Assembly: GCA_964202165.1 (NCBI GenBank)
Contig: CAXNHA010000003.1
Span: 1-33,723, forward strand
Length of the DNA: 33,723 nucleotides
From: Candidatus Marinamargulisbacteria bacterium
Lineage (GTDB): Bacteria > Margulisbacteria > Marinamargulisbacteria > SXXA01 > JAHFDB01
Reading direction: 5' to 3'
Part shown: piece after piece, positions 1-19,915 of the stretch
How the letters are laid out: each line of letters begins with the position of its first letter
Numbering within the stretch: the stretch's first letter is position 1
Notes under the pieces: generated by a model
Database searches by the model: none
Seen by the model: the letters and a program-made list of their open reading frames with translations, nothing else
What the model was told of the DNA's origin: nothing
Program-made: the position numbers and the translations under genes

Positions 1-2
1 GT

Positions 3-308
3 TTGCCAATTAAACCTGTCCAGAACCAGAAACCTGCTCAGCCTATTCAGAAGACAAGCCCGAATAAAGAGAAAAAACCTTTCGAAGAACCTGTCAACAA
101 GAAGCTCACACAACCTTTAAAAGACACAAGTTGGACAGAGTTCAACCCAAATAAGCCACTCCATGTGGAAAAATTGACGCAACAAGCGTCTCCAACCCAA
201 AAAGACGAATGCTCTCCGGATGGCGGGGGTGGGTGTCAGCCTTCTCAAGGCTGTAGTCCAAACGGGGTTTGTACTCCTGAAGGGTATGCTTGTCAACCGG
301 ACAGATAG
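3..308 (+). CDS. Putative RiPP precursor peptide, Cys/Pro-rich C-terminal core (possibly 5'-truncated)
   Basis: Cys-free K/P/Q-rich N-terminal 69 aa, then CSPDGGGG-CQPSQG-CSPNGV-CTPEGYA-CQPDR. Lies directly upstream of a 2OG oxygenase and an rSAM/SPASM gene. The TTG at 3 is at the window edge, so the true start may lie upstream. Confidence 0.75.
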   Translation: MPIKPVQNQKPAQPIQKTSPNKEKKPFEEPVNKKLTQPLKDTSWTEFNPNKPLHVEKLTQQASPTQKDECSPDGGGGCQPSQGCSPNGVCTPEGYACQPDR

Positions 309-848
309 GTGTCAGAAAAGGAGCTCTACCTCCAACATCGGTTTTTCTTTTTCTCAAATCTTTTAGACAAAACCAGCACCCAGCACTTCTTGACTGAATT
401 TCCTTCTTTCTCTTCTCGAAGGGTTGTTTGTGGTGGTGCTGGTGTGTCTTGGGATGAATTTGCAGTACCAGAGGAAAGCCAGTTGTTTCGGTTTTTTCAT
501 TCCGAAAAAATTCTTTCCATTGTCTTTGGCACCGCAGGTATTCCAAGACAAAACTATAAAGCCAGCATTTGGGTCAATCGCTATAAAGAGGGTGAATACA
601 TCAACCCGCACAGAGACAATGGAGGCTCTACCCAGTTGCTGGTCTGTTTGCGTGGAACAGATGAATCCAACGGGGGCGGGCTTTTCTTAGAAGAAAGCAA
701 GGGTGTTGCCCATCATTTGCAACTAAAAGCTGGAGAAGCTGTTTTGTTTGAAGCCACAACGTTAAAACATTGGACAACACCACTTGTCGCCACACCAAAT
801 CATAAAAGTCCAATAAGGGAGGTTGCTGTTGCGCGCTACTACATCTAA
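309..848 (+). CDS. 2OG-Fe(II) oxygenase, prolyl-4-hydroxylase-like
   Basis: VNRYKEGEYINPHRD (HxD, His codon at 609), GGGLFL, GEAVLF, distal His (LKHWT, 768) and 2OG-binding Arg (816). GTG start directly follows the precursor TAG. Confidence 0.85.
   Translation: MSEKELYLQHRFFFFSNLLDKTSTQHFLTEFPSFSSRRVVCGGAGVSWDEFAVPEESQLFRFFHSEKILSIVFGTAGIPRQNYKASIWVNRYKEGEYINPHRDNGGSTQLLVCLRGTDESNGGGLFLEESKGVAHHLQLKAGEAVLFEATTLKHWTTPLVATPNHKSPIREVAVARYYI
815..822 (+). promoter_or_regulatory. Shine-Dalgarno for the radical SAM gene
   Basis: AAGGGAGG lies 6 nt upstream of an in-frame TTG at 829, inside the 3' end of the oxygenase gene. Confidence 0.5.
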
Positions 849-2160
849 TGTCGATTGTTTGTCACACACTATTTTATTAGATCATGCTTATTTTTCATTT
901 TCAGAAGATGTTTACTTGGTGAAGGGGGCTTCCAGGCATTGTATATATGACCTGAAGAATGGGTATTTATACGCCATCAGCGCATTGGCAAAAGACGTAT
1001 CAGATGCATTACACACAAAACCCTATGCTTACAAAGATCTATCAGATGAAGCCAAATCTATTGCAGATTTTTTTCTCGAATCAGGTCTCTTAGAGACTTC
1101 TTCTGCACCTGCAACAATGCAAGACATACTAACCTTAAAAAGAGAGTTTTCACCTTCTTTTTCTTGGATAGAGGTCACTAGAAAATGCAACTTAAAATGT
1201 ACGTTTTGTTATGAAGAGTCTAGTCCAGATTGCTACGAAAAAATGGATTTTGAAGACTTTAAGTTGGCCATAAAGAATCTAAAAGATGTGGGCATTCGCA
1301 ATATCCAATTTATTGGTGGCGAGCCCATGATCCTTGGCGATGAACTCAAAAAGATGATTACCTATTGCCGACAAAACCCAACTGATTTTGATTTTATTGA
1401 GGTGTATACCAACGGGGTCTTTATTCAAACGCATTGGTGTGAATTCTTTAAAGAACATGACATCAGATTGGCCCTGTCTGTGCATTCGTATATCCCTGAA
1501 GAACATGACAAAGTAACCCTAACAAAGGGATCACATGCACGGGTTATACGTGCTATAGATTTGATTCAACGATTTGAAATCCCTTATAGAGTTGGAGCTG
1601 TTCAAACAGCCTCTTGTCAGGTGGGAGAAAAAACAGAAACTACCTCATATACCATTCGGCCAGATAATGTACGTTTGTCTGGTAGAGGAGCCATCTCTCA
1701 ATATAATTTGGACATGTTTAAACAAAAAGCTATTACCAAAGACAAAAAACGCTATCCCATTACAAAGCAACAAGTTGTCCAACATGTATCTGGGCATCAG
1801 TGTTTTATGAAAGACTTGTATATCGGTACTCAGCTTGATGTCTTTCCTTGTGTGATGGAAAGACGATTTTTGTATGGCAATCTCAAAAAAGAGTCGCTAA
1901 AAAAAATCGTGCAGGCAGCAACAACGAGATACTTATCAAAAGATAGTATTGATGGGTGTAAAAGCTGTGAATATCGTTATGGATGTTTTGATTGTAGACC
2001 AGATGCCAATGGGTTGGGCGAATTTCAAAAACCTTGGTTTTGCTCTTACGACCCCTACACAGGAGAATGGTCTGATTTGGAGGAGATGTTTAGCAACTTG
2101 CAACAAGGCATCTATCACGCTTCTGTCTACAAATCTTCTCCAGTACTTGCTCTGTCATGA
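829..2160 (+). CDS. Radical SAM/SPASM domain peptide maturase with probable N-terminal RRE
   Basis: CNLKCTFC (CxxxCxxC, 1186-1209), GGEP, YTNG. SPASM cysteines C-x15-C...CKSCEYRYGCFDC...WFCSYDPYTGEW. About 110-aa N-terminal extension (VKGASRHCIYDLKNG). The ORF track starts at 823; 829 is preferred because of SD spacing. Confidence 0.9.
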   Translation: MRATTSNVDCLSHTILLDHAYFSFSEDVYLVKGASRHCIYDLKNGYLYAISALAKDVSDALHTKPYAYKDLSDEAKSIADFFLESGLLETSSAPATMQDILTLKREFSPSFSWIEVTRKCNLKCTFCYEESSPDCYEKMDFEDFKLAIKNLKDVGIRNIQFIGGEPMILGDELKKMITYCRQNPTDFDFIEVYTNGVFIQTHWCEFFKEHDIRLALSVHSYIPEEHDKVTLTKGSHARVIRAIDLIQRFEIPYRVGAVQTASCQVGEKTETTSYTIRPDNVRLSGRGAISQYNLDMFKQKAITKDKKRYPITKQQVVQHVSGHQCFMKDLYIGTQLDVFPCVMERRFLYGNLKKESLKKIVQAATTRYLSKDSIDGCKSCEYRYGCFDCRPDANGLGEFQKPWFCSYDPYTGEWSDLEEMFSNLQQGIYHASVYKSSPVLALS

Positions 2161-3878
2161 TTTCTGGAGTTACGTCCCTTTCTTTTCAAAAACAAAAAAA
2201 AGTCATTCAAAAAGATGTCACCAAAGGACAGGAAGGCCCCCAAGAAAATAAGATCTACAACATCCTAACATTAGCTCGTCTGGAAGATTTAAATATATCC
2301 CAAAAATATCAATCCAAAGATGATTGGGATGCTTATGAGCAGAATAAAAAAAATTCGGATGCACAATTTGTTGCCAAAGATAGGGGCCGGAAAAAAGCCT
2401 ACTTAGGTCTAGACAACTTGAAGGCATTTTCTTCTGACAAGATCGAGCTATTACAATATCCTAAGACTCTCTCAAAAGAATTGCCTAGCTCGGCGTTGTT
2501 TTCTCAAATTGCACGAGGCGTTCGTTTTATGCACCATAATGACATTGTCCACATGGATCTTAAAGAAGGAAACATCTGTTTAAATAGAAAAGGTACGCCA
2601 AAAATTATAGACTTTGGCGTTTCTAAAGATCTAAAAGAACCCTTGGAAAACCAAGGCCCTATTGGCACCAGACATTATCAAAGTCCTGAATTAATTCATG
2701 CTTTTGTTCATAAAAAAATATCGGGGGTTGATTTAAAAAAGGCAGATATTTTTTCGTTGGGGGTTTTATTTTTTAATAGGCTGATCTCCTCAAAAAAAGA
2801 GGAGTCCGAATATCATTTGATCAAGTGTGTTTACCAAGTAGAAAATAAGAACTTGGATCTTTCTTTAAGAAAAAAAAGTGTCTATAAGTGGGTCCAAGAT
2901 ATTGACAACACATGGATAAATGTCTGGAAAGATCCAGATAAACAAGAGGCTTTTCGCAAAATAATATCCCGCGAACTCAAAGCCCATTGCGATATTTTTG
3001 GAAAAGAAGCCATTGAATGTATTGTGCGGATGCTAGACCCCTTGCCTGAAAAACGTCCTTCTTTAGATCAGATTATCGATACCATTTCAAAAAAAATGGA
3101 GCTATTGGATAAAAATATATCAATTGTACAAGATTTTTTGGCACATCCTTGTTTTAAGAAAGCGATCAACAGCCCCACATATCGGTCAAATACGGCAAAA
3201 GAATTATTGGTCAATCTTGGCGAAATAGGATTGAGTAGCTTGACATACCATTCACGCGAAGCGTTGATCTTGGGCAAAGGATTCCAACGGTTTTATCTGA
3301 CCGTTTTTATGAGAAAATTTCGTGAACTTTCCCGTTTATATCCCAGAATCATGCATGCTATTCGCAAAGACTATATCTCAAGTTTGAGCGAAAAAGACAA
3401 AGACGCTTTGCAGATGGCTTTAAAAACAAATGCAAAAAAAGCAAACAAGACGATTCTTTATGATATGTGTCATGGAGCCATTGTGTATGCCATTTTGCAA
3501 TCCGTTAAGCAAGATATGGATTGGCTTCCCTATGCTTTATGTATTGCATCACAGCCCATTATTGACTACCTACGCCTTGAAAAATCGCAGGTGTTTTATG
3601 AAAAAAATCGCCTTCAGCTTAAGAAAAATGATCCTGAGTTATCAAACATGATTGAGTCAAAAGATAAATATAAAATGATGATTGCAGAAAGTTTGCTAAG
3701 CTTTCTCATTAATACTGCTGGAGAGTATATATTTTATCAGATGGTCGACGGCGCGCTTGTTGAAAAAAATGGGGAAAAATCTCTACAAAACGATGCGTGG
3801 ATACATACATACGTGTTGGTGGCTTCGCTTATGTTGCTTTTATTGGGGCATTTTGGATTTGATTCACAAAAGCTATAG
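2157..3878 (+). CDS. Hanks-type Ser/Thr protein kinase with C-terminal helical/hydrophobic region
   Basis: HMDLKEGN catalytic loop, DFG, GTRHYQSPE, ADIFSLG, KRPS. ATGA overlap with the rSAM stop. Hydrophobic C-terminus YVLVASLMLLLLGHFGF. Confidence 0.85.
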   Translation: MISGVTSLSFQKQKKVIQKDVTKGQEGPQENKIYNILTLARLEDLNISQKYQSKDDWDAYEQNKKNSDAQFVAKDRGRKKAYLGLDNLKAFSSDKIELLQYPKTLSKELPSSALFSQIARGVRFMHHNDIVHMDLKEGNICLNRKGTPKIIDFGVSKDLKEPLENQGPIGTRHYQSPELIHAFVHKKISGVDLKKADIFSLGVLFFNRLISSKKEESEYHLIKCVYQVENKNLDLSLRKKSVYKWVQDIDNTWINVWKDPDKQEAFRKIISRELKAHCDIFGKEAIECIVRMLDPLPEKRPSLDQIIDTISKKMELLDKNISIVQDFLAHPCFKKAINSPTYRSNTAKELLVNLGEIGLSSLTYHSREALILGKGFQRFYLTVFMRKFRELSRLYPRIMHAIRKDYISSLSEKDKDALQMALKTNAKKANKTILYDMCHGAIVYAILQSVKQDMDWLPYALCIASQPIIDYLRLEKSQVFYEKNRLQLKKNDPELSNMIESKDKYKMMIAESLLSFLINTAGEYIFYQMVDGALVEKNGEKSLQNDAWIHTYVLVASLMLLLLGHFGFDSQKL

Positions 3879-3900
3879 CATAAAAAATCACAAAAAAACT

Positions 3901-3930
3901 TAGACGGCTCTCTCTAGAATATGCTATGCT
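3901..3930 (+). promoter_or_regulatory. Candidate sigma70 promoter for ftsZ
   Basis: TAGACG (3901-3906), 18-nt spacer, TATGCT (3925-3930) preceded by TGn, in the intergenic region upstream of the SD-supported ftsZ start. Confidence 0.3.
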
Positions 3931-3988
3931 CCTGTCCCAAGCTTTTAAGCACAACTTTTTCAAAAAAGTGACAATTGAGGAGTTACCT

Positions 3989-5191
3989 TTGACACAAGAA
4001 AATCTTCGGAATTATGCCAATATAAAAGTGATGGGAATTGGGGGTGGAGGCGGAAATGCAGTCAATCGCATGATTGCCTCTGGCGTCAAAGGGGTAGAAT
4101 TCTGGACCATTAATACCGACTTGCAATCTCTCAACGTATCGCTATCAGACAATAAACTCCAAATAGGTGCCAAGCTCACAAAAGGACTTGGGGGTGGTGC
4201 AATTCCCATGGTGGGAGAACAGGCTGCAAAAGAGAGCAAAGAAGATATAGAGGCCGCTCTAGAAGGCTCAGACATGGTGTTTGTCACAGCAGGTATGGGG
4301 GGAGGAACAGGGACTGGTGCTGCTCCGGTTGTTGCAAAAATTGCCAAAGAATTGGGCGCTCTTACCATTGGCGTTGTCACAAAACCGTTTAAATTTGAAG
4401 GCCCTGTGAGATCGCGTCAAGCAGAAGAAGGTTTGCGAAAACTAAGAGAGCATGTAGATGCTTTGATTATTATCCCCAATGATAAATTGATGAATGTTGT
4501 CGAAAAAATAACCTCTATGTTGGATGCGTTTCGGTTTGCAGATGATGTGTTGAGGCAAGGGGTTCAGGGTATCGCAGATCTTATTACGGTTCCTGGTCTG
4601 ATCAACTTGGACTTTGCTGATGTACGTACCATCATGATGAATTCAGGTTCAGCTATGATGGGGATGGGACGTGCCAGTGGAGAGGACCGTGCGGTTGTTG
4701 CAGCTACACAGGCCATTTCTTCTCCTTTGCTTGAAGAAACCGTATATGGGGCTACAGGGGTGATCCTCAATATTACCGGCAGTGAAAATTTATCTTTACA
4801 CGAAGTGCATGCAGCAGCTGAGGTGATCTACGCAGCGGTTGATCCTGATGCCAATATCCTATTTGGTTCTGTGGTGGATGAACGCCTAGAAAATGAAATT
4901 ATGATTACGGTTATTGCAACTGGGTTTAAAAATCAAGGTCAAGAAAGTAGTATTCTAAAGCGTCAATTGGCTTTTTCAACCTCAGATCAAGTCCTAGATG
5001 AGGACACCATAGAAGAGGATATCGAGTCTGTCTCTCAAAAAGAAGAAAGACGATCGATTGATCAAGCGCCTGTGTCTCCCTCTTCTTCTCTCACCCAAAC
5101 ACCCACCATTCCATCAGAGTCTATCCCTGATTCTCCTCAACAAGAATTTGATTTGGACGTGCCTGCATTTTTGAGAAACCTCAGCAACTAG
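3989..5191 (+). CDS. ftsZ: Cell division protein FtsZ
   Basis: [23 protein letters not shown] tubulin signature, INLDFAD, C-terminal LDVPAFLR. Start placed at TTG 3989 because GAGGAG lies at 3977-3982 (ORF track gives 3926). Confidence 0.98.
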
Positions 5192-5198
5192 TTAGCCA

Positions 5199-5507
5199 AT
5201 GCGATGGTCTTTTTGGCTGGCTATTGTTTTTGTCTTTTCTTTTTTTACTACCTGTAGAGCAACTCACATTTTTAAAGATATTCCAGCCCAACATTGGGCG
5301 AGGCAATCTGTAGAAAGATTGGATCATCTTGGGATTACCAGTGGCTACCAAGATGGGACATTTCGGGGTCGAAAATCGCTTTCTAGGTATGAATTGGCCT
5401 TGTATTTGTCCAATCTCGAACACATACAGAGTAAGCAATTGGCCCAACTTTATCAAAAAATTCAAGATCTTCAGTCAGAAATCAATCACTTAAAATCACA
5501 TCCATGA
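5199..5507 (+). CDS. Secreted S-layer homology (SLH) domain protein with short coiled coil
   Basis: Signal peptide, then FKDIPAQHWA...LGITSGYQDGTFRGRKSLSRYELA (SLH consensus), then heptad LYQKIQDLQSEINHL. Confidence 0.85.
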   Translation: MRWSFWLAIVFVFSFFTTCRATHIFKDIPAQHWARQSVERLDHLGITSGYQDGTFRGRKSLSRYELALYLSNLEHIQSKQLAQLYQKIQDLQSEINHLKSHP

Positions 5508-8446: not shown

Positions 8447-11400
8447 ATGAATACAACACCTACCTTATATCGCTTATTTTGCAAAAAAATAACCCTGTTT
8501 CTGTTTGGATTGGGGCTTGTTTTTTTTCAGGCTACGCTTGCTCATGGGGTAACCATGAATATCCAAGATACCTACTACTCAAAGACGCAAGATAAATATC
8601 TAAATGGCACTTACTCCGGTGTGGTTTTTAAATTAAAAACAGCAACCGCTATCCTCTTTGAAACCACAATCCCCCAAGTTACGTTTACCAATGGATATTT
8701 TGAGATTTCTGTCAGTGTCAATGCCACCTTGTTTAACCGTACGTTGCCCATTGAAGCCGTCCTTACTGTACAGGGAGAGTCTATGTCTTTCCCGTTGCTA
8801 TCCGTCCCATACGCCATTCGATCAACTGTAGCTGAACTAGCCCGCAGTATCCCTATATCTGCTATAAAAGGGTCTTTTGCGACCGTTAACGTTAAGAATG
8901 GCATTTCTGTTCGCAACCTTCAGAATAAAAGTGTCTTTATTGCCAAAAAAAACACCTCTGTTGGCATCTTAAATGGAGCACCTGCTTTTTCATTGGATAT
9001 TAGAGGGACTGTCAATGCAACCAACTTGCTTGTAAACAAGGGGGATATTCGCACCATTTTTTCCTGGAAGGCTGACGCGACCAATCCAAATAACATCTAC
9101 TTTAAAGGCGGGTTTGTTGGCATCAATACCAACAACCCTTTTTTTGGACTTCATGTTGATGGAACAATCAATGCCTCGACTTATCTGATCAATGGACAAA
9201 AACTCAGCAACTCTTTGGATTGGAAAAGGAACCCCACAATTACGCCCAATGTTTACTACCAAGATCTTGAGGCATTTGTGGGTATTGGTACAGCTGTGCC
9301 AAAAGAAAAAGTAGATGTTGTTGGGGGGCTCAAACTAAGTATTCCGAAAGGCATCGCAAATACAGTTGGCACCATTCAATGGACAGGCTCTGTTTTTAAG
9401 GGGTATCTTCTTCTACCTGATAATGCAATTCCCACATGGCGGGTATTTCCGGGGATAAATGGATCGGGAAATACCAACAAAGTAGCCTTATGGAGCGGTC
9501 AAGATCTATTCGCTTTTCCCAACAACCTTTCCTATTCAAGTTTGCTACGCATGGATCCTACTGCCAATGCTATCGGTATCGGTGGGCTTGGCACCTCAAA
9601 GCTTGATATTTTTGGGACTCAACTGGGTCGAAACCTCCTGTCTGTGATTGGCAGTCAAGCTGAACCCTCTCTTGTTGTTTTGCCAGAGGGAAATATAGGC
9701 ATCGGTGTTCAAACACCTGCCTACAAACTTCAGATAGCAGGGGTCTTGGATGCCCAAGATTTTACAGTCAATGGAGAAATTTTACGGCTTACCTATTCTG
9801 TGAATGATATTTGGACACGACGCCCTTCTTCTCGCAGCATCTACTATCTTCTGAATAACATTGGTATTGGTCGTCCCGATCCTAAGAATCTATTGGAGAT
9901 TGCTCAGCCAACGGGAGTGCCTACCCAAAATCCTGCCATCACATTTACCAACACATCCACCTTGGTCTCTTATACACTAGGCGTAGATACCCACTCAAAA
10001 AACACATTTAGAATTGAGAAGGGTATTGCCCTTGGGCAATCAAAGCCTCTTTTTGTGGCACAAGAAGGTCGGTTTGGGGTGGGTACAGATCCCCCAAAAG
10101 CCAACCTCCATGTAAGTGGCAATGAAGGGATTGTTTTTTCTGGTACATTTTTACCCTTGGGCACCACATCCAACTATCTTCCTGTCTCGGGACCTGGCAC
10201 ACGTTTGTTGTGGTATCCTCCCCGATCCGCTCTTAGAATAGGCACCGTCTCTACTGCAAATTGGAACTTTAACAATCAAGGTCTATACACCGTTGGAATG
10301 GGTCTCAATCCCTTGGTAGAAGGAAACCTAAGCGTTGCTATGGGTGGTGCACAAAACCAGGTAACGGGGGTATATGCCTCTAGTGTTGGGGGATTTAACA
10401 ATCAGGCTCAAGGTGATTTTTCTTTGGCATTGGGTCGCAACACACAGGCCCTTCATCATGGCACATGGGTATGGGCAGACAACCAGAACTCTCCTATTGG
10501 CTCTGTGGGAGAAAACCAAGTAATTTTACGTGCATCTGGTGGCGTTGCAATAGGGACATCCAATATCCAACAAACGGGACTGACCTTATCACGATCTGCA
10601 CCAACTGGAAGTATCTTGTCATTGGTTGGAAATGAGACCGTGTCTTTTCAGGTGAGCTCAAACGGACTCATTAGAATAGGCTCATCACCTATATCTTCGC
10701 CATCTACAGGACCCCCTACCAAGTTGTCTGTATTGGGAGATACGGGACTTGGGACACTGGCATCCTATGGCATGCTCGGCATTCAACCTGCATCCACATT
10801 TGACACGGTCATGATGATTATTGGCAATCAAGGTGTTGCAACTCCTGCCATGATGGTGACCAAAGAGTTGGGTGTGTATATCGGCACAACACCTTCTTTT
10901 AGATTTGTTGATCTAGAACATCCAGATTTGCAAACCAATGGATTTATTCGAGTGGCGAGTGGCAGTGTACTCGCAGATTCTTATACATTTCCAGACGGGC
11001 AACAATTATCTGGCGATCCTCCAAATTATGTTTGGCAATACCGCAACACCACTCCCAATATCTATTTTGTATCCGGAAATGTGGGTATTGGCACAACAAC
11101 CCCTAGACATTTGCTCCATTTATCTAATATGGGAAGCTTGGCATTTGAACCTCCCGGGTTATCTCCTCTCATTACCATCAATTTGGACGACCAGGATCTC
11201 TATACATTCGGCATTTCACGTACGATTCCGGATCGGTTGATCATACAACCTAGTACGATGAATGCAGTAAATAGTCCTTTTTCTGTATGGGGTAACCGTG
11301 TGGGTATTGGGACTGTTTTCCCAAAAGTCGCATTACATGTATCTGGCGATGTGTTTGTAGCCTCTCGGATTCGTGTTGGAACACCCGCCAACGCAAGTAG

Positions 11401-14400
11401 CCTATCTGTCAGCGGGTCCATTGCCAGCAACAAATTCTTTATCAAAGGATCCGTTATTGCCCCCGGAGGTACGCCTTGGTCCTCTTTTATATCCCCATCC
11501 AGACTCTATTATGATACGGTGTTAGACCCCGCAAAAAACCTCTATAGTTTTGTGGGTATTGGAACCCAAATACCCCGCTCAGCACTGCATGTCGCAGGCA
11601 CGCTTCGTTTGCTTGGAGATACTGAAAATTTGCCATTTCTGCGCATATCCAAGGAACTCTATGGCAACACGGTATCGCAAAACGAGGTGGCATTAAAAGA
11701 CACCTCAGGATCTATCTATTCTAGCTTATACGTTACTGGCAACAGACTTTTTCTTAAGGGATCTATTGTATGGTCTATATCGGATGTATTTTCAAAAGGG
11801 GCTGGACAGTATGGCAACATTGCCTTGTGGGTGCCCCTTGCCGATCAAACAACTTCCTATACCTTGGGAGACTCCGCATTAATCTGGGATTCTAGACAAG
11901 GAAGCAATCCAGGCAAATTGTTGTTTGAAGGGGATATTCTAAGCGATATTACCAAAACAACCCCTTCTTCTTTTTTGATCACCAATACCACCCGGATTGG
12001 AAATCCGACGTTGCTCAATGTGATAGATGTGCAATCGTCCATCGATCATAATGGTGCGCTGAGTAATTCCAAATCACATTCTGGGAAACGCGTTATGCTC
12101 ACCTATGACAAAGATACCGAGGGAGGACAGTCAGAGGGTGTATCCATTACCCTACGTCAACCCCCCAATGCTTCTTTTACTGCGGGCGCTCAAGCCATTG
12201 GACTGTCTGTAGATTCATCAGGTGTAGCTGTGCAGTCTTTTGGAGATAAAGGTCTCAACACAGCTGCTGTTTTTTTGGGAAAAGTAGGGATTAACACCAT
12301 GACGCCCAGTGCAGACTTAGATGTAAGAGGGTCTATATTGGCCAAGTTTTTTACCATCTCCAGACAACTCACCATGTCCACGCTCAATGTGACCAACAGC
12401 CTTAGCATTATGTCTCAAAACAGAGTCGGCATTGGCACCACAACGCCAAAAACAGATTTGGAAATTGTGAATAGCATGCAAACAAACTCTCTGATCGCAA
12501 GCGGGATCCATACCGAATCCCTCACCGTAGCCCCAGCATTTTTTTCTGTGAATAATTTTCGAGTCGGCATTGGCACCACAACGCCGGTTGCCCAACTTCA
12601 TATTTCAAGATCGTTTTTGGATATTCTTCCTACCGAATTTTCTTTTCAAAATCTTGGGGTTAGCATCAATATTGCAACTGCTCTTCAAAATTGTTTTGGG
12701 CTTGATATTGCTATTCGATCTGCATCGCCAGCAGGTCTATTTCCTCTGCCAAACAATTATCTAGGTAGTTTTGATGGCACCTCAAAAGAAGCAAAGGGGA
12801 TTGCCATCTCCTTAAAAAACATCATTGCCGACCAACCCTTCCGTGAGATCACCGGACTGTCCATCACCCTGCCTAAACAGAGCACCCAAAACGCAGCCAT
12901 TTTTAGGGGAGGCTTTGTTGGCATTGGCGTCTCAGATCCTCAGACAGAATTGGATGTAGCAGGCACCGTATCCGTGGATTACTTCAAAAACAAATTATCC
13001 AGTACACTTAGTAGCGGGGCTTTTGACTTTTTAGAGGTGAGATCCTCTACTCAAAATCTGAGGGTTACAGGGCCCGTTGTGATGGAAAACGCAACAGTAA
13101 AAGATTTGATCCAACAACAATTATCCGTCAAAAAAATCCTTTATTTTAAAGACAAAAGTCTCAGTATCAACTCTGCTCTTTTGTCGGGCAGAGGCAATAT
13201 CGTCTCTACCTTGTCAGCCCAATCGATGCAAGTGAGCACAGATATCGCTGTAAGAGGCCCAGCCCAGCTTCTTTCTCTTTCCTCTGGAAAAGATGCATTT
13301 GCCCCTATTGGGGTTGCTATTATTGGAAAAACACAGGTGGCGTCGGTTTCTGTATCAGAGGCTCTGTTTGCAAATACTGTATCGATCAATGCTCTCTTTG
13401 TGATGAACAAAGACAGAAAATTAGGCATCGGCACCACAGCCCCTCGCTATGGTATTGATATTCAGATACCGCCCAGCCTCACCCCTATAATAGGCACGCC
13501 CATTCTTTTTGAGGCAAACAACAACGAGTCCTGGAATGCCATCCGAATCAGCCAATCCCAAGGGAACGCCGTGGGTCTCTTGGCAGTATCTGACACCGAT
13601 AGTGGTTTTACCTCAGGATCCGGGGTGGTGGCCATAAAAACAGGCAACTCAAGCTCGGCACTGTCTTTTTTGTCTGATCCAGACTCTGGCCCACCGGCAG
13701 AACATATGCGCATTACATCCTCTGGAAATGTGGGCATCGACACCTCATCTCCGCAGTCCAAACTAGATATTAATGGGGATACAATTGTGCGTGAATCTGG
13801 ATCTGTCAGCAACCCTGTATCAGTCAAAACGGTCTCAAGTCCCGCGGGACTATCGTTGCTTTCTTCGCTCATTCTTCCCACTGATTCTAGTGTAACAGGG
13901 TACGGTGCGTCCGAGCAGTCGATCGAGTTGCGTCCTACAACCCCCGATGTTGCGGCAACAGGAATCCTCTCTCTGTTTGTAAGAGAAAAAGACAACAGCC
14001 TCTATTTTCAAACCCTTTCATCAAGCGGTCACTCTGTATCCGAAAATTTGAGCATACCCATTACCTCCTCAGCATGGGGACTGGCCACCTATAGTACAAA
14101 AAATCGCTTGGCAAGTGCCAAATCACTCCAATGGGTACCTTCTACCACCTCTCCCAATATTCTAAAAGTCAATTCTCTTGTGTCATTGATGGGAGGACCC
14201 GGTACTGCATCTGGCAAAAACAATGCCGTATCCAGTGCTCTTTATATGACCATCAATGACCGGACAAAACCCAGTACCGCACGGTTTACTGGCACTACCA
14301 TTGTGCTTGGCAATAGCCAAGCAGGCCCCCTCCCTTATGTGGGTACTAATCAAACAGCAGTGGGCATTGGCGTCGATATGGATAGGCTAAAAGAAGCCGG

Positions 14401-17400
14401 TACCACTAGCCAAGGGCTCTCTACTCTATCCAAAAAAATTGCGGCCGTCTTTTTATCTGGCAGTCAAACCAGTGGCAATGTCGGTATTGCCACCAGTCCC
14501 AATAGCACATCTGTTATGGATCCCATGGCAGCCTTGCATGTGCGATCCGACAGTCCTACCCAATCGTTGTTTTTGCTGCAGGCCCAAGATACAACGGGAA
14601 AAAAAGACCCATTGCTTATCGTACTTCCTACTGGAAATGTTGGCATTGGTACCGCCACTCCCGGCTCTAAATTGTCCATTTTATCTGCTGATACGACCCA
14701 ATCTTCTTTGGCATTTTTGGTACTTAACAATCAAGAAAAACCCCTTTTTGCCCTCACCAATGAGGGTCAACTGGGCATTGGAAGGCTAAAACCCGCTGCG
14801 GGGCTTCAGTTAACGGGAACCCTGAGATCCACGACGTTTCACTCCCATACCTTGAGCCTTCCCTCTTTACGATTGGGGGATTATTTTTCGGTAGATGCAT
14901 CAGGCATTGGCATGGGGATATATCCTCCCAAAGCAGATTGGCATATCATTCGGTCTTTTGTACGCCCTTCCAAGGCTGTTTTTTTGGAAAAAATAGCCCT
15001 GGCAATTCCTGCAAATACGGGGATCAATGCCAACATAGCAGGCCTCCAATATGCTACAAAATCCAAGTTGGCCAACACATTTGGATCTCTTCAAAATACA
15101 CCAATCGACAATCGAGGCATGGGAATATCACTAGAAAAAATGGAGCTGGCTCCAAATGGGATTCTCACCGGACTTTATGTCACCGTTTCTGCTAACAATA
15201 GCCAAAATGAAAACCCAAGATGGACAGCTGCTTACTTAGGTGGGGGGAAAGTAGGTATCGGCACAAGTACGCCGGAGATGACGTTGGATATCAATGGGGA
15301 TTTGCGTGCACGATCTATCTATGCCGACAATTCTCTTTTTAATGTACCCACCGCCAAGCTAATCTCTATGGCTGTACGCAAAAACGCCCCTTTTTTAGGG
15401 GATGCTTATGTCTCTGGCAATGTGTTAACTGTTTCAAAAATATTGTCCATTGAGAATACCACATCGCTCACACTCTTGTTTTCCGACCCTACCCATAAAA
15501 TACTTGAAAGCAACCAGTTGCTTCGGGCTATAGATGCAACAGTGCCGGCCTTATCCGTTGGGGTGGTGGGTCGACCTCAAGATCAATTTCCTCCTGATAC
15601 TTCGAGACGCTTGTATACAAAAGGGGATGTAAAAATAACAAACGGCAAGTTTGATGCAGGCCTAGCTCTGTCTCGGTTAAATCTGCTAAACAGCATAAAT
15701 GCCCCTCTTTACCTCCAAGCTAGTAATATTGTGGTTGACCGCTCTTTGCGAGGAGATATTGTGATGTTAACTCCCTTTGAGATGAACGCTGTAGACCCTC
15801 TTTTTGGAGCCGTGTATACCAGCACCGCAATTGAGACTCCAGATGAATGGATGTATAAGTCATCTGCAACAGAGATAAAAGACAAGGATGGTAAGATTAT
15901 TAATCCTGGAATCAACATCTCTAAAACAATCAAAGTTCCTACATCCAACGAAGGTGCATTGCCCTTCTTTTCTCCTGAATATGCCAACAACATTCATCCT
16001 ATTACAGGTCTGTCGTGGCTTGCATCAACGAGCTCACGCACCGCCTCCATTCTGTCTATCAAAAGCGATGAAAATGCCACAGATCATGTTGCTGGATTAG
16101 ACCTCATTGATTTTATTGGTCTTCAACGCGTGAATACCCATGTCGCCCATACGCTTCACATGGGATTTAACAACCGTATCGCCAAAACCAATTCTACCTT
16201 CAAGGGTCTGTCTATCTTGTTGCAATCAAACAGCAATGTTCCCCTATCAAACAGCGATACTGCGATAGGCCTAACGGTAGATATGTCCAAGCTGCCAAAT
16301 CGTGGGTCTACACAATTGCCTATCGAAGAAGATAAGCCTCTCAACGGTCAACGATACGCTGCATTTTTCTTGTCAGGAAAAGATGTGCCAGGCAATGTCA
16401 TGATTGGACCGGCACGTAAAAATCCTTCTGCAAATCTTCATGTTGTTGCCGGATCTACAGCACCTGCTTTGTGGATAGACAGTCTCACGACGCCCCATAT
16501 TCTTTCTGTGACCGCTACCGGCAGTGTTGGCATTGGTACAACAGCCAATAGCACCCTCACACTAGAAGGCCCCCTCCGTATTGCAACGGATACGAGCCTT
16601 CTGTTTGTTGCAACCACCAATCAGAGAGTTGGCATTGGCACCCCCACACCAGACAGCACCCTTACCCTTGTGAATAACACATCTACCCTCTTGTCTTTAT
16701 CTGCTCAGGCAATGCCTGCCCGTTTTGTGGTGGATGCAGCGGGTAGCATGGGGATAGGGGTGTCGGCTCCCCTCGCCCGAGCTCATCTCAGTGCACCGCC
16801 ATCTTCTCTTCAATCTAATCTCACGGCCACAGTCAGGTACAATAATGTGGATTCTACGCCTATCAGTAAGTTAGGCTTTACTCAGCAAAATGGTTATCTA
16901 GTCGATCAGCAGGGCAATCAACAAGTTATTACGCGGAACAACGGGCAAGGTAATCTCGAACAACTTTATATCGGTATCGTGAAGGTGAATGATACATACT
17001 ATTATTACGGCTCCAAATATGCTGTAAACACCTCTACACCTGAGGAAGAATCCGTACCACTCAACGTACCTCTTTTGCTCGCAATAGGCACAAAAAACAG
17101 CACTATCGAGGTGCCCTTTAGGATATCGGCATCCGGTAATATTGGGATTACCACACCCGTTGCTAGAAGCACATCCTATGCCCCCCCATCTTTGGGTTAT
17201 TCACTCTCTGTCAGCAAGAATGTATTGTCTGGATCTTCTTCTTCGCTGAAGTCAATACGTGCCTTGAATACCTATCAAGGATTTGTTGCAGCACAAAATC
17301 AAGACTTTTTATGGACAGGTCTCAATACTACAAAACCCACTATCTTGTTTGGAAAAACAAGCGCAGATCCCTCTTCTTTTGCAATTGTACAAGGTAAAAA

Positions 17401-19915
17401 TTCCACCGAAATCATGCGGTTGACAGGCACAGGCATTGGACTTGGCACCTCCTCTCCAGAAGCCATGCTCCACGTACGAGGATCGTCATCTGTGCCTATT
17501 TTTGCGATAGACAAGGCAAACAACACCCCTATCCTCACTGTGGATGCATCTGGACAAATAGGTATCCAAAATAAAACGCCTCATGCCTCATTGGATGTGA
17601 GTGGCAATCTCGGTATTAGCCGCTTGGTAAATGCTGTCGATACAGGCACCTCGCTCACTGGAAAAACCATGACCCTTAAGAATATAAAACAAACTCGTAA
17701 CAACAACGCCATTTATTCAAGACTCACCTATGACGGGACTCAACTCGCTCAATTGGTTGGCAACAACATTGAGGTAAGGCTGGGAGAAGACCGATCAAAA
17801 AATGTTGTGGGGCTGCAAATCACCATCAACGCAAAACCTGCTAATACTCACAAAGTGAGGGGCATCCATGTTGCCATTTCTCCTAGCTACAATATACACA
17901 ATTACGCAGCAACAGGGGTGGATGGCAAGGTGAGTGCAGCCTTGTTTTTGGGAGGTGCAGTTAAGATTGGGCGTAGTACCCGCATTCCTCCAAGCCTACT
18001 CGAGGTATCCACCATACTGGATGCCGCCAACCTCAATTACAATATCGCTTACTTTGAAAGCCAACTCGGTACCAATCCTGTGAATAGATGGCGGATACGT
18101 TATATCCCAACCCAATCTATCACGACCAGCCTAAACCCTTTGAGTCTATACCGTTCCTCTGCAGGCAAACAAACTCAGGCCACGTCGTTTTCTTCATATG
18201 TTACTCCTGCTCAGTCATTGACAATTGACACCCATATCGGACAGCTTTCTACCATCTACCGTCCAGATCGCGACGACGACCTTAGGGCTACGGGATCTGT
18301 GTTTATAGCAACCAGTCCAGAAAAAGATTGGGAGACAGGCACACCCATCAACAGGGTAGGATTTGGATTTGATAAACCTGAGGATATGACATATCTCGAT
18401 ACAACCCTGGTGGTAGCTGGCAATGTCAAGATAGGGGCGACCTCCAATGCCACTTTTCTCGCTTCCTCTGGATACGGATCCCGGCTGTATTTTTCAGGAG
18501 CACCTCCAGTGGCTTACAATACCGATGGTGAGAATGGAGACAAACTCTGGATGGCACGCTACAACGTATCAGATGCTGTCTCAGAGTTGAGAATAGGGCT
18601 CAGCGATAGCAATATGCAAGATAACCCTGGTGCCTATTTTTCTGTTTATTCCGTTACACCAAATTATCTACCCCTTGTATCTATCGTCCCTGCTATTAAA
18701 ATTGGGGTCTCTGGCTATCACACCAGTACACTTGTAGATGCCCTCCTGCTCAATCCTTTGGCAACAGCACCGTATCTTCCCCGTGGGGTCATGGGTATTA
18801 ACGTCGCAAATCCTATGGCCCCCCTCCATGTCAGTGGATCCGTGAGGGTGGATACACATAAAACTGGTCTGACTGTTGCGACTCATAATACCGCCATCGC
18901 CATCATTGGCCCTTCTGTTGAAGATAGCAACTATGTGACTTTTTTGTATAAGCCAAGCGCCTCTACCGCGCTGACTGCCGCACAAGGTATAGCGGGTGAG
19001 ATCCAGTATTTTACCCCTGTGCGAGGCATCAGCACAATCAATATTAATGGCACCTCTTATACCCCCACACGTTCCAATCTTGTATTTGCCTTTTCTACAA
19101 CAATTAATGTCGTGGCGGCAGGCGGTGGCGTAAATCGTATTGTCGCCATTGTAGGCCCTTATTCAATAACGGCACGTATTTGCACATGGAATGGGACAAC
19201 CCTTTCCAAAGGAAAGATCGTCAACGCTCCTATAGGGGGTGCTGTTCTCACCACGTTTAATTTTAACGGCACCGTTCAACGGGTAACAGTCAATGCGATC
19301 TCTTCTGGACTTCCGGGAGTTAGGTATCTCTCCAGTGCCGGAGACTATGCCGAACACCTCCAAAAATTAGATCCGGACGAATCCATTGGGGCAGGTGATG
19401 TGGTGGGTGTATGCAATGGAAAAATTACAAAAAACACCCGACAAGCTCAACAAATCATGGTCATCAGTACCTCCCCCATTGTACAAGGAAACTGGAAAGA
19501 CAAAGATAAGACACGCTTGCCGGTAGCATTTTTGGGTCAAGTCCCTGTACGGGTACGAGGCCCTGTACGATCAGGGGATATCCTCATCGCATCTGAGGAT
19601 ATGGACGGCACGGCTATAGCTGTACCGATACACGAGATCACCTCTCATCAACTGACGCGCATTGTAGGGCGTGCTTGGGAAAGCACAGAAAACCGTACCA
19701 TTAGCCTCATCCATACCCTTGTGGGCATGCCTCTACAATCCCATGTTTTGGCAACAAAATGGGCACGGTTGCGTCAGATGATGGCCTCGCTAAAAGAAGA
19801 CTCTACCTGGGTATCTGATTTGCAGACACAGTACACATCCATTCTTTCTGCCCAAAAAGAGATGCTCGATAGGCTCAAAAAGAAAGTCCAAGATGTCCAC
19901 ATTGATACCCCTTAA
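8447..19915 (+). CDS. Giant (3822 aa) secreted tail-fibre-like adhesin with GxVGIGTxxP repeats and C-terminal peptidase G2-like autocleaving chaperone
   Basis: Uninterrupted 11.4-kb ORF. Signal peptide, N-terminal NGYF...SVPYA motif, about 30 VGIG(T)xxP repeats, DYAE...GDVVGV...VIST.P...VAFLGQVPVRV.GPV..GD...IVGRA domain, terminal coiled coil. Confidence 0.85.
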   Translation: MNTTPTLYRLFCKKITLFLFGLGLVFFQATLAHGVTMNIQDTYYSKTQDKYLNGTYSGVVFKLKTATAILFETTIPQVTFTNGYFEISVSVNATLFNRTLPIEAVLTVQGESMSFPLLSVPYAIRSTVAELARSIPISAIKGSFATVNVKNGISVRNLQNKSVFIAKKNTSVGILNGAPAFSLDIRGTVNATNLLVNKGDIRTIFSWKADATNPNNIYFKGGFVGINTNNPFFGLHVDGTINASTYLINGQKLSNSLDWKRNPTITPNVYYQDLEAFVGIGTAVPKEKVDVVGGLKLSIPKGIANTVGTIQWTGSVFKGYLLLPDNAIPTWRVFPGINGSGNTNKVALWSGQDLFAFPNNLSYSSLLRMDPTANAIGIGGLGTSKLDIFGTQLGRNLLSVIGSQAEPSLVVLPEGNIGIGVQTPAYKLQIAGVLDAQDFTVNGEILRLTYSVNDIWTRRPSSRSIYYLLNNIGIGRPDPKNLLEIAQPTGVPTQNPAITFTNTSTLVSYTLGVDTHSKNTFRIEKGIALGQSKPLFVAQEGRFGVGTDPPKANLHVSGNEGIVFSGTFLPLGTTSNYLPVSGPGTRLLWYPPRSALRIGTVSTANWNFNNQGLYTVGMGLNPLVEGNLSVAMGGAQNQVTGVYASSVGGFNNQAQGDFSLALGRNTQALHHGTWVWADNQNSPIGSVGENQVILRASGGVAIGTSNIQQTGLTLSRSAPTGSILSLVGNETVSFQVSSNGLIRIGSSPISSPSTGPPTKLSVLGDTGLGTLASYGMLGIQPASTFDTVMMIIGNQGVATPAMMVTKELGVYIGTTPSFRFVDLEHPDLQTNGFIRVASGSVLADSYTFPDGQQLSGDPPNYVWQYRNTTPNIYFVSGNVGIGTTTPRHLLHLSNMGSLAFEPPGLSPLITINLDDQDLYTFGISRTIPDRLIIQPSTMNAVNSPFSVWGNRVGIGTVFPKVALHVSGDVFVASRIRVGTPANASSLSVSGSIASNKFFIKGSVIAPGGTPWSSFISPSRLYYDTVLDPAKNLYSFVGIGTQIPRSALHVAGTLRLLGDTENLPFLRISKELYGNTVSQNEVALKDTSGSIYSSLYVTGNRLFLKGSIVWSISDVFSKGAGQYGNIALWVPLADQTTSYTLGDSALIWDSRQGSNPGKLLFEGDILSDITKTTPSSFLITNTTRIGNPTLLNVIDVQSSIDHNGALSNSKSHSGKRVMLTYDKDTEGGQSEGVSITLRQPPNASFTAGAQAIGLSVDSSGVAVQSFGDKGLNTAAVFLGKVGINTMTPSADLDVRGSILAKFFTISRQLTMSTLNVTNSLSIMSQNRVGIGTTTPKTDLEIVNSMQTNSLIASGIHTESLTVAPAFFSVNNFRVGIGTTTPVAQLHISRSFLDILPTEFSFQNLGVSINIATALQNCFGLDIAIRSASPAGLFPLPNNYLGSFDGTSKEAKGIAISLKNIIADQPFREITGLSITLPKQSTQNAAIFRGGFVGIGVSDPQTELDVAGTVSVDYFKNKLSSTLSSGAFDFLEVRSSTQNLRVTGPVVMENATVKDLIQQQLSVKKILYFKDKSLSINSALLSGRGNIVSTLSAQSMQVSTDIAVRGPAQLLSLSSGKDAFAPIGVAIIGKTQVASVSVSEALFANTVSINALFVMNKDRKLGIGTTAPRYGIDIQIPPSLTPIIGTPILFEANNNESWNAIRISQSQGNAVGLLAVSDTDSGFTSGSGVVAIKTGNSSSALSFLSDPDSGPPAEHMRITSSGNVGIDTSSPQSKLDINGDTIVRESGSVSNPVSVKTVSSPAGLSLLSSLILPTDSSVTGYGASEQSIELRPTTPDVAATGILSLFVREKDNSLYFQTLSSSGHSVSENLSIPITSSAWGLATYSTKNRLASAKSLQWVPSTTSPNILKVNSLVSLMGGPGTASGKNNAVSSALYMTINDRTKPSTARFTGTTIVLGNSQAGPLPYVGTNQTAVGIGVDMDRLKEAGTTSQGLSTLSKKIAAVFLSGSQTSGNVGIATSPNSTSVMDPMAALHVRSDSPTQSLFLLQAQDTTGKKDPLLIVLPTGNVGIGTATPGSKLSILSADTTQSSLAFLVLNNQEKPLFALTNEGQLGIGRLKPAAGLQLTGTLRSTTFHSHTLSLPSLRLGDYFSVDASGIGMGIYPPKADWHIIRSFVRPSKAVFLEKIALAIPANTGINANIAGLQYATKSKLANTFGSLQNTPIDNRGMGISLEKMELAPNGILTGLYVTVSANNSQNENPRWTAAYLGGGKVGIGTSTPEMTLDINGDLRARSIYADNSLFNVPTAKLISMAVRKNAPFLGDAYVSGNVLTVSKILSIENTTSLTLLFSDPTHKILESNQLLRAIDATVPALSVGVVGRPQDQFPPDTSRRLYTKGDVKITNGKFDAGLALSRLNLLNSINAPLYLQASNIVVDRSLRGDIVMLTPFEMNAVDPLFGAVYTSTAIETPDEWMYKSSATEIKDKDGKIINPGINISKTIKVPTSNEGALPFFSPEYANNIHPITGLSWLASTSSRTASILSIKSDENATDHVAGLDLIDFIGLQRVNTHVAHTLHMGFNNRIAKTNSTFKGLSILLQSNSNVPLSNSDTAIGLTVDMSKLPNRGSTQLPIEEDKPLNGQRYAAFFLSGKDVPGNVMIGPARKNPSANLHVVAGSTAPALWIDSLTTPHILSVTATGSVGIGTTANSTLTLEGPLRIATDTSLLFVATTNQRVGIGTPTPDSTLTLVNNTSTLLSLSAQAMPARFVVDAAGSMGIGVSAPLARAHLSAPPSSLQSNLTATVRYNNVDSTPISKLGFTQQNGYLVDQQGNQQVITRNNGQGNLEQLYIGIVKVNDTYYYYGSKYAVNTSTPEEESVPLNVPLLLAIGTKNSTIEVPFRISASGNIGITTPVARSTSYAPPSLGYSLSVSKNVLSGSSSSLKSIRALNTYQGFVAAQNQDFLWTGLNTTKPTILFGKTSADPSSFAIVQGKNSTEIMRLTGTGIGLGTSSPEAMLHVRGSSSVPIFAIDKANNTPILTVDASGQIGIQNKTPHASLDVSGNLGISRLVNAVDTGTSLTGKTMTLKNIKQTRNNNAIYSRLTYDGTQLAQLVGNNIEVRLGEDRSKNVVGLQITINAKPANTHKVRGIHVAISPSYNIHNYAATGVDGKVSAALFLGGAVKIGRSTRIPPSLLEVSTILDAANLNYNIAYFESQLGTNPVNRWRIRYIPTQSITTSLNPLSLYRSSAGKQTQATSFSSYVTPAQSLTIDTHIGQLSTIYRPDRDDDLRATGSVFIATSPEKDWETGTPINRVGFGFDKPEDMTYLDTTLVVAGNVKIGATSNATFLASSGYGSRLYFSGAPPVAYNTDGENGDKLWMARYNVSDAVSELRIGLSDSNMQDNPGAYFSVYSVTPNYLPLVSIVPAIKIGVSGYHTSTLVDALLLNPLATAPYLPRGVMGINVANPMAPLHVSGSVRVDTHKTGLTVATHNTAIAIIGPSVEDSNYVTFLYKPSASTALTAAQGIAGEIQYFTPVRGISTININGTSYTPTRSNLVFAFSTTINVVAAGGGVNRIVAIVGPYSITARICTWNGTTLSKGKIVNAPIGGAVLTTFNFNGTVQRVTVNAISSGLPGVRYLSSAGDYAEHLQKLDPDESIGAGDVVGVCNGKITKNTRQAQQIMVISTSPIVQGNWKDKDKTRLPVAFLGQVPVRVRGPVRSGDILIASEDMDGTAIAVPIHEITSHQLTRIVGRAWESTENRTISLIHTLVGMPLQSHVLATKWARLRQMMASLKEDSTWVSDLQTQYTSILSAQKEMLDRLKKKVQDVHIDTP
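12423..12585 (+). repeat. Exact 25-bp direct repeat within the fibre gene
   Basis: GAGTCGGCATTGGCACCACAACGCC at 12423-12447 and 12561-12585, offset by 138 bp (46 codons). Both copies lie in RVGIGTTTP. Confidence 0.9.

Follow-up and report, generated by a model that had tools for sequence, protein, structure and literature searches.

Cysteine-linking peptide maturases of the radical S-adenosylmethionine (rSAM) type provide the closest described counterparts of the locus considered here. PapB, which acts on PapA, the precursor of the ranthipeptide freyrasin, installs six Cys-Asp links, one in each of six Cxxx(D/E) units, and CSANDA is given as the minimal unit (PMC12715619). In sactipeptides the Cys sulfur is bonded to an alpha-carbon, in ranthipeptides to a beta- or gamma-carbon. 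The type 2 sactipeptides suisactin (enzyme QmpB) and streptosactin (enzyme GggB) have unnested small rings with donor and acceptor two to three residues apart: QMP-subfamily sactionine rings enclose a single intervening residue and streptosactin has four-residue rings (PMC13361665, PMC9389541). NxxcB links Cys to an Asn located three positions off, bonding to its beta-carbon, and accepts Ala, Gln or Asp in its place (PMC9389541). Here we describe a locus at the start of a contig from a Candidatus Marinamargulisbacteria bacterium (GenBank assembly GCA_964202165.1, contig CAXNHA010000003.1, positions 1 to 33,723 of the forward strand; this whole stretch of 33,723 nucleotides is called the window), where a gene for a small peptide with five C-x-P units lies upstream of a gene for an rSAM/SPASM enzyme. 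We propose that window positions 210-305 encode the core of a ribosomally made and post-translationally modified peptide (RiPP) precursor of an undescribed family, the units of which would each be modified by that enzyme. To this reading as a whole, including a thioether-forming step, we assign a probability of about 50%; that precursor and enzyme form a pair and that C-x-P is the unit we hold to be highly probable.

Comparison with these systems, made over the window precursor and those of ten further loci (eleven locus-linked precursors with 63 C-x-P units), shows partial likeness to each. The PapA/PapB pair has, like the window locus, an rSAM/SPASM enzyme with a recognition domain and a substrate of repeated one-Cys units, usually with an acidic residue downstream, and as far as the available text goes its unit CSANDA is six residues long, which equals the modal C-x-P period of the window family. 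The window family differs in having C-x-P-D, with two intervening residues and not three, in its invariant Pro, in carrying D or E at the third position after Cys (+3) in only 23 of 63 units, and in not matching the donor-acceptor motif C-x-x-x-D/E, the +4 position being without conservation; the leader motif printed in the PapB paper is also unrelated to that of the window family (PMC12715619). The ring sizes reported in the passages on type 2 sactipeptides are those that C-x-P (acceptor at +2) or C-x-P-D (acceptor at +3) would give; compared by description only, those peptides have two rings, occur in streptococci and are under Rgg control, whereas the window family has 2-11 units, and a C-x-P rule was not found in these passages (PMC13361665, PMC9389541). 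NxxcB shows that a preferred yet replaceable D/N acceptor is possible; its acceptor precedes the Cys in a single NxxC motif, whereas the window family has the reverse order, repeated units and a Gly at +3 in 4 of 63 (PMC9389541).

The pairing of peptide and enzyme is carried by the orthologous loci. Orthologs of the rSAM enzyme with 46-57% identity were found in two related genomes, at six more distinct GTDB-representative loci and on four metagenome contigs. With duplicates removed (L004 equals L003, L007 equals L002, and L011 is nearly identical to L006) there were eleven distinct loci besides the window, of which L042 starts inside the rSAM gene, lacks upstream DNA and was left out of the precursor count. 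At all ten loci with upstream DNA (L002, L003, L005, L006, L008, L009, L010, L040, L041 and L043) a C-x-P peptide adjoins the rSAM gene, which bears out the proposal of an earlier sequence-only reading of the window that this was the core of an rSAM-associated precursor. The arrangement varies in detail: the peptide of L002 is transcribed divergently from the rSAM gene, other maturase genes stand between the two in L008 and L010, and the peptide of L006 (2544-2681), which was found via the leader motif described below, has only two units, CSPG and CPPS, 12 residues apart. The constants across the loci are a C-x-P peptide and one rSAM enzyme only.

In the window the precursor open reading frame (ORF) is cut by the start of the contig, just four nucleotides being missing (the ATGA of ATG-AGT), and the full-length protein is the database entry P0001, of 103 residues, beginning MSLPIKP. 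The source assembly comprises 914 kb in 79 contigs and is 65% complete. Frame 3 reads ...QKDE-CSPD-GGGG-CQPS-QG-CSPN-GV-CTPE-GYA-CQPD-R-stop (Table 1), with the five units exactly as the sequence-only reading had listed them; each of the five cysteines carries x-Pro, x being S, Q, S, T and Q and the +3 residue D, S, N, E and D, and the Cys-to-Cys spacings are 8, 6, 6 and 7. The Pro codons of the units vary (CCG, CCT, CCA, CCT, CCG), the Cys codons are TGC in the first unit and TGT in the other four, and Tandem Repeats Finder reported no DNA repeat in window positions 1-400. Given these varied synonymous codons and the lack of a DNA repeat, the pattern is not a recent duplication and is maintained at the protein level. 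That it might be a chance pattern or non-coding sequence could be argued from the truncation of the ORF by the contig end and from the lack of any Pfam or NCBIfam match to the precursor, and is effectively refuted by the comparative data: the grammar is kept at all ten orthologous loci, a gene caller independently called P0001, and shuffling the 32-residue core 200,000 times produced five C-x-P units with a frequency of 5e-6 (mean 0.75). A six-frame translation of the 914-kb assembly yielded this core as its sole cluster of at least three C-x-P units 1-9 residues apart.

Table 1. Features of the precursor gene and its operon in the window
Feature	Position	Strand	Basis
Precursor peptide gene, 103 aa, frame 3	1..308	+	ORF translation; stop TAG 306-308
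Leader recognition segment PLHVEKLTQQA, precursor residues 54-64	156..188	+	Family motif; complex model
Core peptide, five C-x-P units and final Arg	210..305	+	ORF translation
Core unit CSPD	210..221		Cys codon starts at 210
Core unit CQPS	234..245		Cys codon starts at 234
Core unit CSPN	252..263		Cys codon starts at 252
Core unit CTPE	270..281		Cys codon starts at 270
Core unit CQPD	291..302		Cys codon starts at 291
Small 2-oxoglutarate (2OG)-Fe(II) oxygenase, 179 aa	309..848	+	PF13640 27.1 bits (cut-off 27); His-x-Asp in NPHRDN
rSAM/SPASM peptide maturase, 445 aa as listed	823..2160	+	PF04055 71.6 bits (cut-off 29.5); PF13186 22.4 bits (cut-off 21.5)
Ser/Thr protein kinase-like protein, 573 aa	2157..3878	+	PF00069 95 bits, residues 103-308

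Across the locus-linked precursors the motif proposed from the window peptide is conserved, C and P being kept together at 63 of the 68 cysteines; of the five cysteines outside C-x-P, three are the opening residues of CC doublets (a pair of them in L008, the third in L041) and the other two belong to leaders (L009 and L010). When a profile built from nine precursors was run against 1.84 billion representative proteins, it gave 14 matches at E <= 0.001, namely seven of the query sequences, six new peptides (P0124 and P0127-P0131) and P0126. In the six new peptides every Cys, 47 in all, is part of a C-x-P, and the leader motif is present in five of them. P0124, with 122 residues, contains two tandem leader-plus-core modules, in which PTIELVT occurs twice, followed by five and by seven C-x-P units. 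P0126, a protein of 306 residues with about 20 collagen-like G-x-C-G-P-x-G repeats, each with a Cys, is probably unrelated and was dropped from the counts. In 16 precursors (without L006) there are 108 C-x-P cysteines, against a mean of 13.8 and a maximum of 30 in whole-peptide shuffles. The commonest Cys-to-Cys spacing in the locus-linked set is 6 (18 of 52), followed by 5 (10) and 7 (8). With 17 residue types at x, the earlier statement that x is always S, T or Q holds for the window peptide and not for the family, and the odd number of cysteines, from which it had been argued that they cannot all be paired, is uninformative in itself, as the peptides contain from 2 units (L006) to 11.

By these patterns C-x-P is the unit; it works in any copy number and does without a separate acceptor region. 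The peptide ends 1-5 residues after the last unit in the window, L002, L003, L010 and L043, long C-terminal tails follow the units in L008, L040 and L005, and the precursor alignment shows no conserved acceptor region. These observations bear on the possibility of a classical hairpin-type sactipeptide or ranthipeptide, in which Cys would be joined to a distant acceptor and C-x-P would be mere local context. The long tails of the three precursors just named would suit such a peptide, as would the longer-range links formed by SkfB and CteB, the closest matches of the enzyme; the early ends of the other five, and 2-11 units without a matching second half or an acceptor region, make it very improbable.

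The +3 position is biased without following a rule. Of the 63 units, 20 have D there, 9 have N and 3 have E, the remainder having G, Y, Q, A, R, S, I, F, K, H, V, C, M or T. Counted together, D, N and E fill the +3 position of 32 of the 63 units, compared with 69 of the 277 remaining core positions (Fisher p about 1e-4); for Asp alone the counts are 20 of the 63 and 20 of the 277 (p about 1e-6). These p-values overstate the bias in that L003 and L043, and L009 and L041, are close kin. The preference for D, N or E noticed in the window peptide is therefore real, and about half of the units carry other residues. As a general rule, a side-chain acceptor at +3 in the manner of PapB or NxxcB fails, given that half of the units lack D, N or E and that the Gly units have no beta-carbon. 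Pro followed by Asp or Asn and then Gly is a classic turn sequence, and the D/N bias may be conformational, a matter of turn propensity. At +4 there is no conserved residue, the commonest being G (11 of 108 units).

The leader is equally recognizable. A family motif, [FIVL]E[LKC][LI]T, lies 10-20 residues before the first core Cys in nine of the eleven precursors, L008 being without it and L041 being cut at its 5' end; the window version, VEKLT, stands 11 residues before the first Cys. In a complex model of the rSAM enzyme with precursor residues 45-103 the interface score (ipSAE) was 0.81, the best of three controls giving 0.01. Among solved complexes 116 of 157 attain this mark, among mismatched pairs 2 of 215; at least 38% of contacts are shared between the runs, and the partner pLDDT (predicted local distance difference test) is at least 39. 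The confident part of the modelled interface places the segment of precursor residues 54-64 on a strand of the enzyme (residues 47-53), on residues 55-56, on helix residues 76-87 and on residues 306-313. We infer from this model that the conserved leader motif probably docks on the recognition domain of the enzyme.

The AlphaFold model of the enzyme (mean pLDDT 89.1, predicted template-modelling score 0.85) has this domain, of strands and helices, in front of the barrel, at about residues 20-93 (strands 23-52, helices 54-86, pLDDT >90); no PqqD-type Pfam match to the enzyme was reported. In a family alignment of 37 rSAM members with 29-57% identity the cluster motif CNLKCTFC is retained, its cysteines C122, C126 and C129 being invariant (37 of 37), as are seven SPASM cysteines (327, 343, 379, 382, 388, 391 and 407). 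No eighth SPASM Cys is invariant, position 265 being Cys in 14 of 37 members, and His325, which lies two positions ahead of the first SPASM Cys, is conserved in 33 of the 37. Against NCBIfam the highest scores were those of DynA (73 bits) and of a SPASM-with-grasp model (72 bits), both of them partial matches. The models for AlbA (NF012164, 57.7 bits against a cut-off of 850), StsB (NF045574, 54.2 against 625), CcpM (TIGR04068, 52.5 against 500) and QhpD (TIGR03906, 47.9 against 453) scored lower, and that for PapB (NF047865, 52.4 bits against 340) matched the rSAM core only (residues 117-253).

A profile search of the PDB placed SkfB first (9e-29, profile positions 96-336), the next match being at 8e-18, with viperin-like enzymes, CteB and the anaerobic sulfatase-maturating enzyme (anSME) behind it at about 1e-16 to 1e-18. 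Foldseek gave the order CteB, SkfB, SuiB, TigE and then anSME (1.5e-15 to 1.7e-13), and VIA-align gave Z-scores of 22.4 for SkfB, 21.8 for CteB, 21.1 for anSME and for SuiB, 20.9 for ChlB and 20.7 for EpeE. Only CteB, SkfB and TigE align across the N-terminal domain. CteB, the SCIFF maturase (aligned over model residues 29-409), and SkfB are thus the best matches by sequence profile and structure, but their identity to the window enzyme is only 16-19% and their Z-scores are tied with those of enzymes of other chemistries. A C-x-P grammar is not known from the precursors of SCIFF and SKF. In its architecture the window enzyme is a leader-guided peptide maturase with a fused recognition domain, like CteB, SuiB and the sacti- and ranthisynthases, and the chemistry cannot be read from it.

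This tie gives weight to two alternatives in which no thioether is formed. In the first, the enzyme would abstract a hydrogen from the beta-carbon of Cys in the manner of anSME or SbtM, giving a thioaldehyde and then formylglycine or a 5-thiooxazole without a cross-link. SbtM is an rSAM enzyme that turns a Cys into 5-thiooxazole, and anSME resembles the window enzyme in being an rSAM/SPASM protein whose target Cys has x-Pro after it; in structure it matches as closely as CteB does (root-mean-square deviation 3.7 over 286 residues). The sulfatase maturation motif CXPXR (PMC13638132) has C-x-P as its first half, and the last window unit reads CQPDR. At L008, moreover, a C-x-P peptide of this type lies beside an MNIO enzyme (PF05114, 253 bits) whose best NCBIfam match is the BufB model (213 bits, cut-off 310); the extra cysteines of the L008 peptide, in its CC doublets outside C-x-P, could be the targets of that enzyme. 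The motif of anSME is C/S-x-P/A-x-R, and the Arg at +4 is missing from 107 of 110 units of the window family; among the five window units the last alone has it. The substrate in this family is a small leader-bearing repeat peptide and not a sulfatase. The model TIGR03942 for anSME gives 68.6 bits against a cut-off of 349.45 and covers the rSAM core only. An anSME is not known to have a leader-recognition domain and keeps eight cysteines for its auxiliary clusters, unlike the window family with its recognition domain and seven invariant cysteines. Taking both sides together we consider oxidation of the Cys beta-carbon unlikely, though it is the main rival to the thioether.

In the second alternative Cys would not be the radical site at all: its target would be Pro, the residue at +3 or the backbone (epimerisation being one example), and the thiols would bind metal or form disulfides. 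EpeE and other rSAM enzymes that do not form thioethers lie within about 2 Z of the top match, the cores are rich in Asp and Asn, and a regular six-residue spacing of thiols resembles that of metal-binding peptides. Cys and Pro are the only near-invariant residues of the core, so that other targets would lack sequence constraint, and odd unit counts (5, 3, 7 and 11), like the two cysteines of L006 set 12 residues apart, fit poorly with pairing; we regard such chemistry as distinctly unlikely.

In the reading that we prefer, the leader motif would pair as a strand with the N-terminal recognition domain, as in the complex model, and so tether the core, and the enzyme would work through the tethered units one after another. 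By analogy with the maturases named above, each unit would receive one rSAM modification centred on its Cys, most likely a thioether formed between the sulfur of that Cys and a carbon of its own unit. The units are taken to act alone because their number varies from 2 to 11 and the cores end right after the last of them (CQPD-R-stop). Two acceptors may be envisaged, both of them raised in the sequence-only reading: a carbon of the invariant Pro at +2, which would give a nine-membered ring with one intervening residue, or the residue at +3, which would give a four-residue ring. In the window peptide this would yield five small rings in a row. The version in which Pro is the acceptor, with one nine-membered thioether per unit, five rigid micro-rings here and up to 11 elsewhere, and the oxygenase of the window decorating the same prolines, fits the invariance of Pro better than a side-chain acceptor at +3 does, and in that full form we hold it to be rather unlikely. 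A ring from Cys to +3 is possible if the enzyme is tolerant in the way of NxxcB or targets the alpha-carbon, no side-chain link being available in the Gly units.

Several points weigh against this reading. The thioether chemistry is drawn by analogy; the enzyme reaches no curated NCBIfam cut-off, and its structure ties thioether formers with enzymes of other chemistries (Z within about 1.7). An open iron site for the substrate thiolate on the first auxiliary cluster, a feature of sactipeptide and ranthipeptide maturases, is uncertain, as His325 could be a fourth ligand. The core was not confidently placed in the complex model, and the score of that model may reflect likeness to the solved leader-enzyme complexes of CteB, SuiB and ChlB. 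A thioether to proline did not turn up in our literature searches, and we know of no Cys-Pro thioether. The +3 residue varies too widely, with Gly among its states, for a single acceptor rule at that position. The six new peptides, finally, were recovered with a C-x-P profile and without genomic context and lend the motif no independent support.

Of the other genes of the window operon, the oxygenase gene starts directly after the stop codon of the precursor, and the start of the kinase-like gene overlaps the stop of the rSAM gene by 4 nt; no terminator-like site was found on the plus strand of window positions 1-4200. The structural neighbours of the oxygenase in the ESM Atlas, which serve as a lead only, include prolyl-4-hydroxylase/SM-20-like clusters and the cyclophane-peptide oxygenase YhhC (TM 0.77-0.87); a search of PDB sequences gave no match (best E 0.61). 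It is probably a tailoring hydroxylase particular to the window cluster and, as no more than a reasonable guess, may hydroxylate Pro or the Asp or Asn at +3. The kinase-like protein keeps the catalytic loop HMDLKEGN, DFG and SPE and has an atypical N-lobe, its Pfam match covering the C-lobe only (residues 103-308 to profile positions 92-259); its C-terminal half, of 250 residues, is hydrophobic. Its membership in the pathway is uncertain; though translationally coupled, it need not act on the peptide. In three of the five window units the residue before Pro is S or T, and proline-directed phosphorylation by this protein is conceivable. A kinase as a conserved pathway member was considered and rejected: the kinase of L006 shares only the generic catalytic core with it (34% identity over 94 aa), and the neighbour at L002 is unrelated.

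The surroundings of the other loci were surveyed by a Pfam scan of 28 neighbouring ORFs and an NCBIfam scan. Among these ORFs no 2OG oxygenase was found, several of the loci being only 1.6-3.3 kb long. Since no such oxygenase was seen at the other loci and the kinases share a generic core only, the oxygenase and kinase of the window are at most accessories of its own cluster. L010 (284-3748) encodes a C-x-P precursor and, after it, two rSAM/SPASM proteins. The second of these is the ortholog of the window enzyme; the first (907-2370) is QhpD/PapB/anSME-like along its full length (95-115 bits). L008 (1064-4260) is a hybrid cluster composed of the precursor with CC doublets, the MNIO gene, an ORF of 263 aa for a partner without family and the orthologous rSAM gene, so that one C-x-P peptide there stands with two putative types of Cys-directed maturase. 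L005 holds an ABC exporter and also an IS110 transposase, and L006 has a flavin monooxygenase upstream and its kinase 1.6 kb downstream. On two metagenome contigs toxin-antitoxin genes flank the rSAM locus: DarT with a macro-domain protein upstream (L043, 147-1867) and ParD with Fic/Doc downstream (L042, 1385-2025).

Beyond the kinase-like gene the window continues with FtsZ and housekeeping genes. Its plus strand encodes a small S-layer homology domain protein (5199-5507; PF00395, 30.8 bits), followed by a BioF-like aminotransferase, and at 8447-19912 a single ORF of 3,822 aa that has no Pfam match at E <= 1e-5 and sits between an unannotated ORF of 351 aa and a ComEA-like gene. The G+C content is 37-38% in window positions 1001-4000, which hold the rSAM and kinase genes, and about 44% in the next 8 kb.

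Within the phylum of the window the rSAM ortholog occurs in 3 of 146 genomes searched, and searches of its order (15 genomes), class (55) and phylum (146) yielded, as further orthologs, only the two already known. A candidate fourth ortholog, in genome G114, was rejected as a different rSAM protein (139 bits) without the N-terminal domain. A tblastn search of plasmids returned distant rSAM genes only (24-28% identity). The enzyme clade numbers 117 clusters at E <= 1e-40, none of them with more than a generic name; the roughly 100 more distant homologs, with 30-45% identity, include a Paceibacterota protein. The carriers are small-genome, mostly uncultivated bacteria labelled Margulisiibacteriota, Gammaproteobacteria and Proteobacteria. 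The sparse distribution in the phylum points to horizontal spread of a small module; the toxin-antitoxin modules and the IS110 transposase suggest a mobile context, and acquisition by transfer fits both the low G+C content and the occurrence in 3 of 146 genomes of the phylum.

The combination of leader, C-x-P unit and rSAM clade is covered by no curated model and by no paper that we searched. Ten precursors matched no NCBIfam precursor model at E up to 1, two of them giving chance-level NCBIfam matches to other models (ferredoxin, 0.15; BlaP, 0.054). Literature searches returned no description of a C-x-P precursor family, the matches to CXP being to the sulfatase motif CXPXR, and six variants of the leader motif had no match in one supplementary file of the rSAM compendium of the Mitchell laboratory (PMC10288494), other files of which might list the family.

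Radical-SAM peptide maturases are a main source of new peptide chemistry, and the usual bottleneck is the precursor grammar that belongs to each enzyme clade. The pairing seen here is a clean one, of a short leader motif, a near-invariant C-x-P unit and one enzyme clade. The unit consists of three fixed positions and occurs in 2-11 copies; if a ring forms, it would amount to a compact, repeatable macrocyclisation tag comparable to the CSANDA of PapB, and if it is true that proline is the acceptor, the bond would be of a new type.

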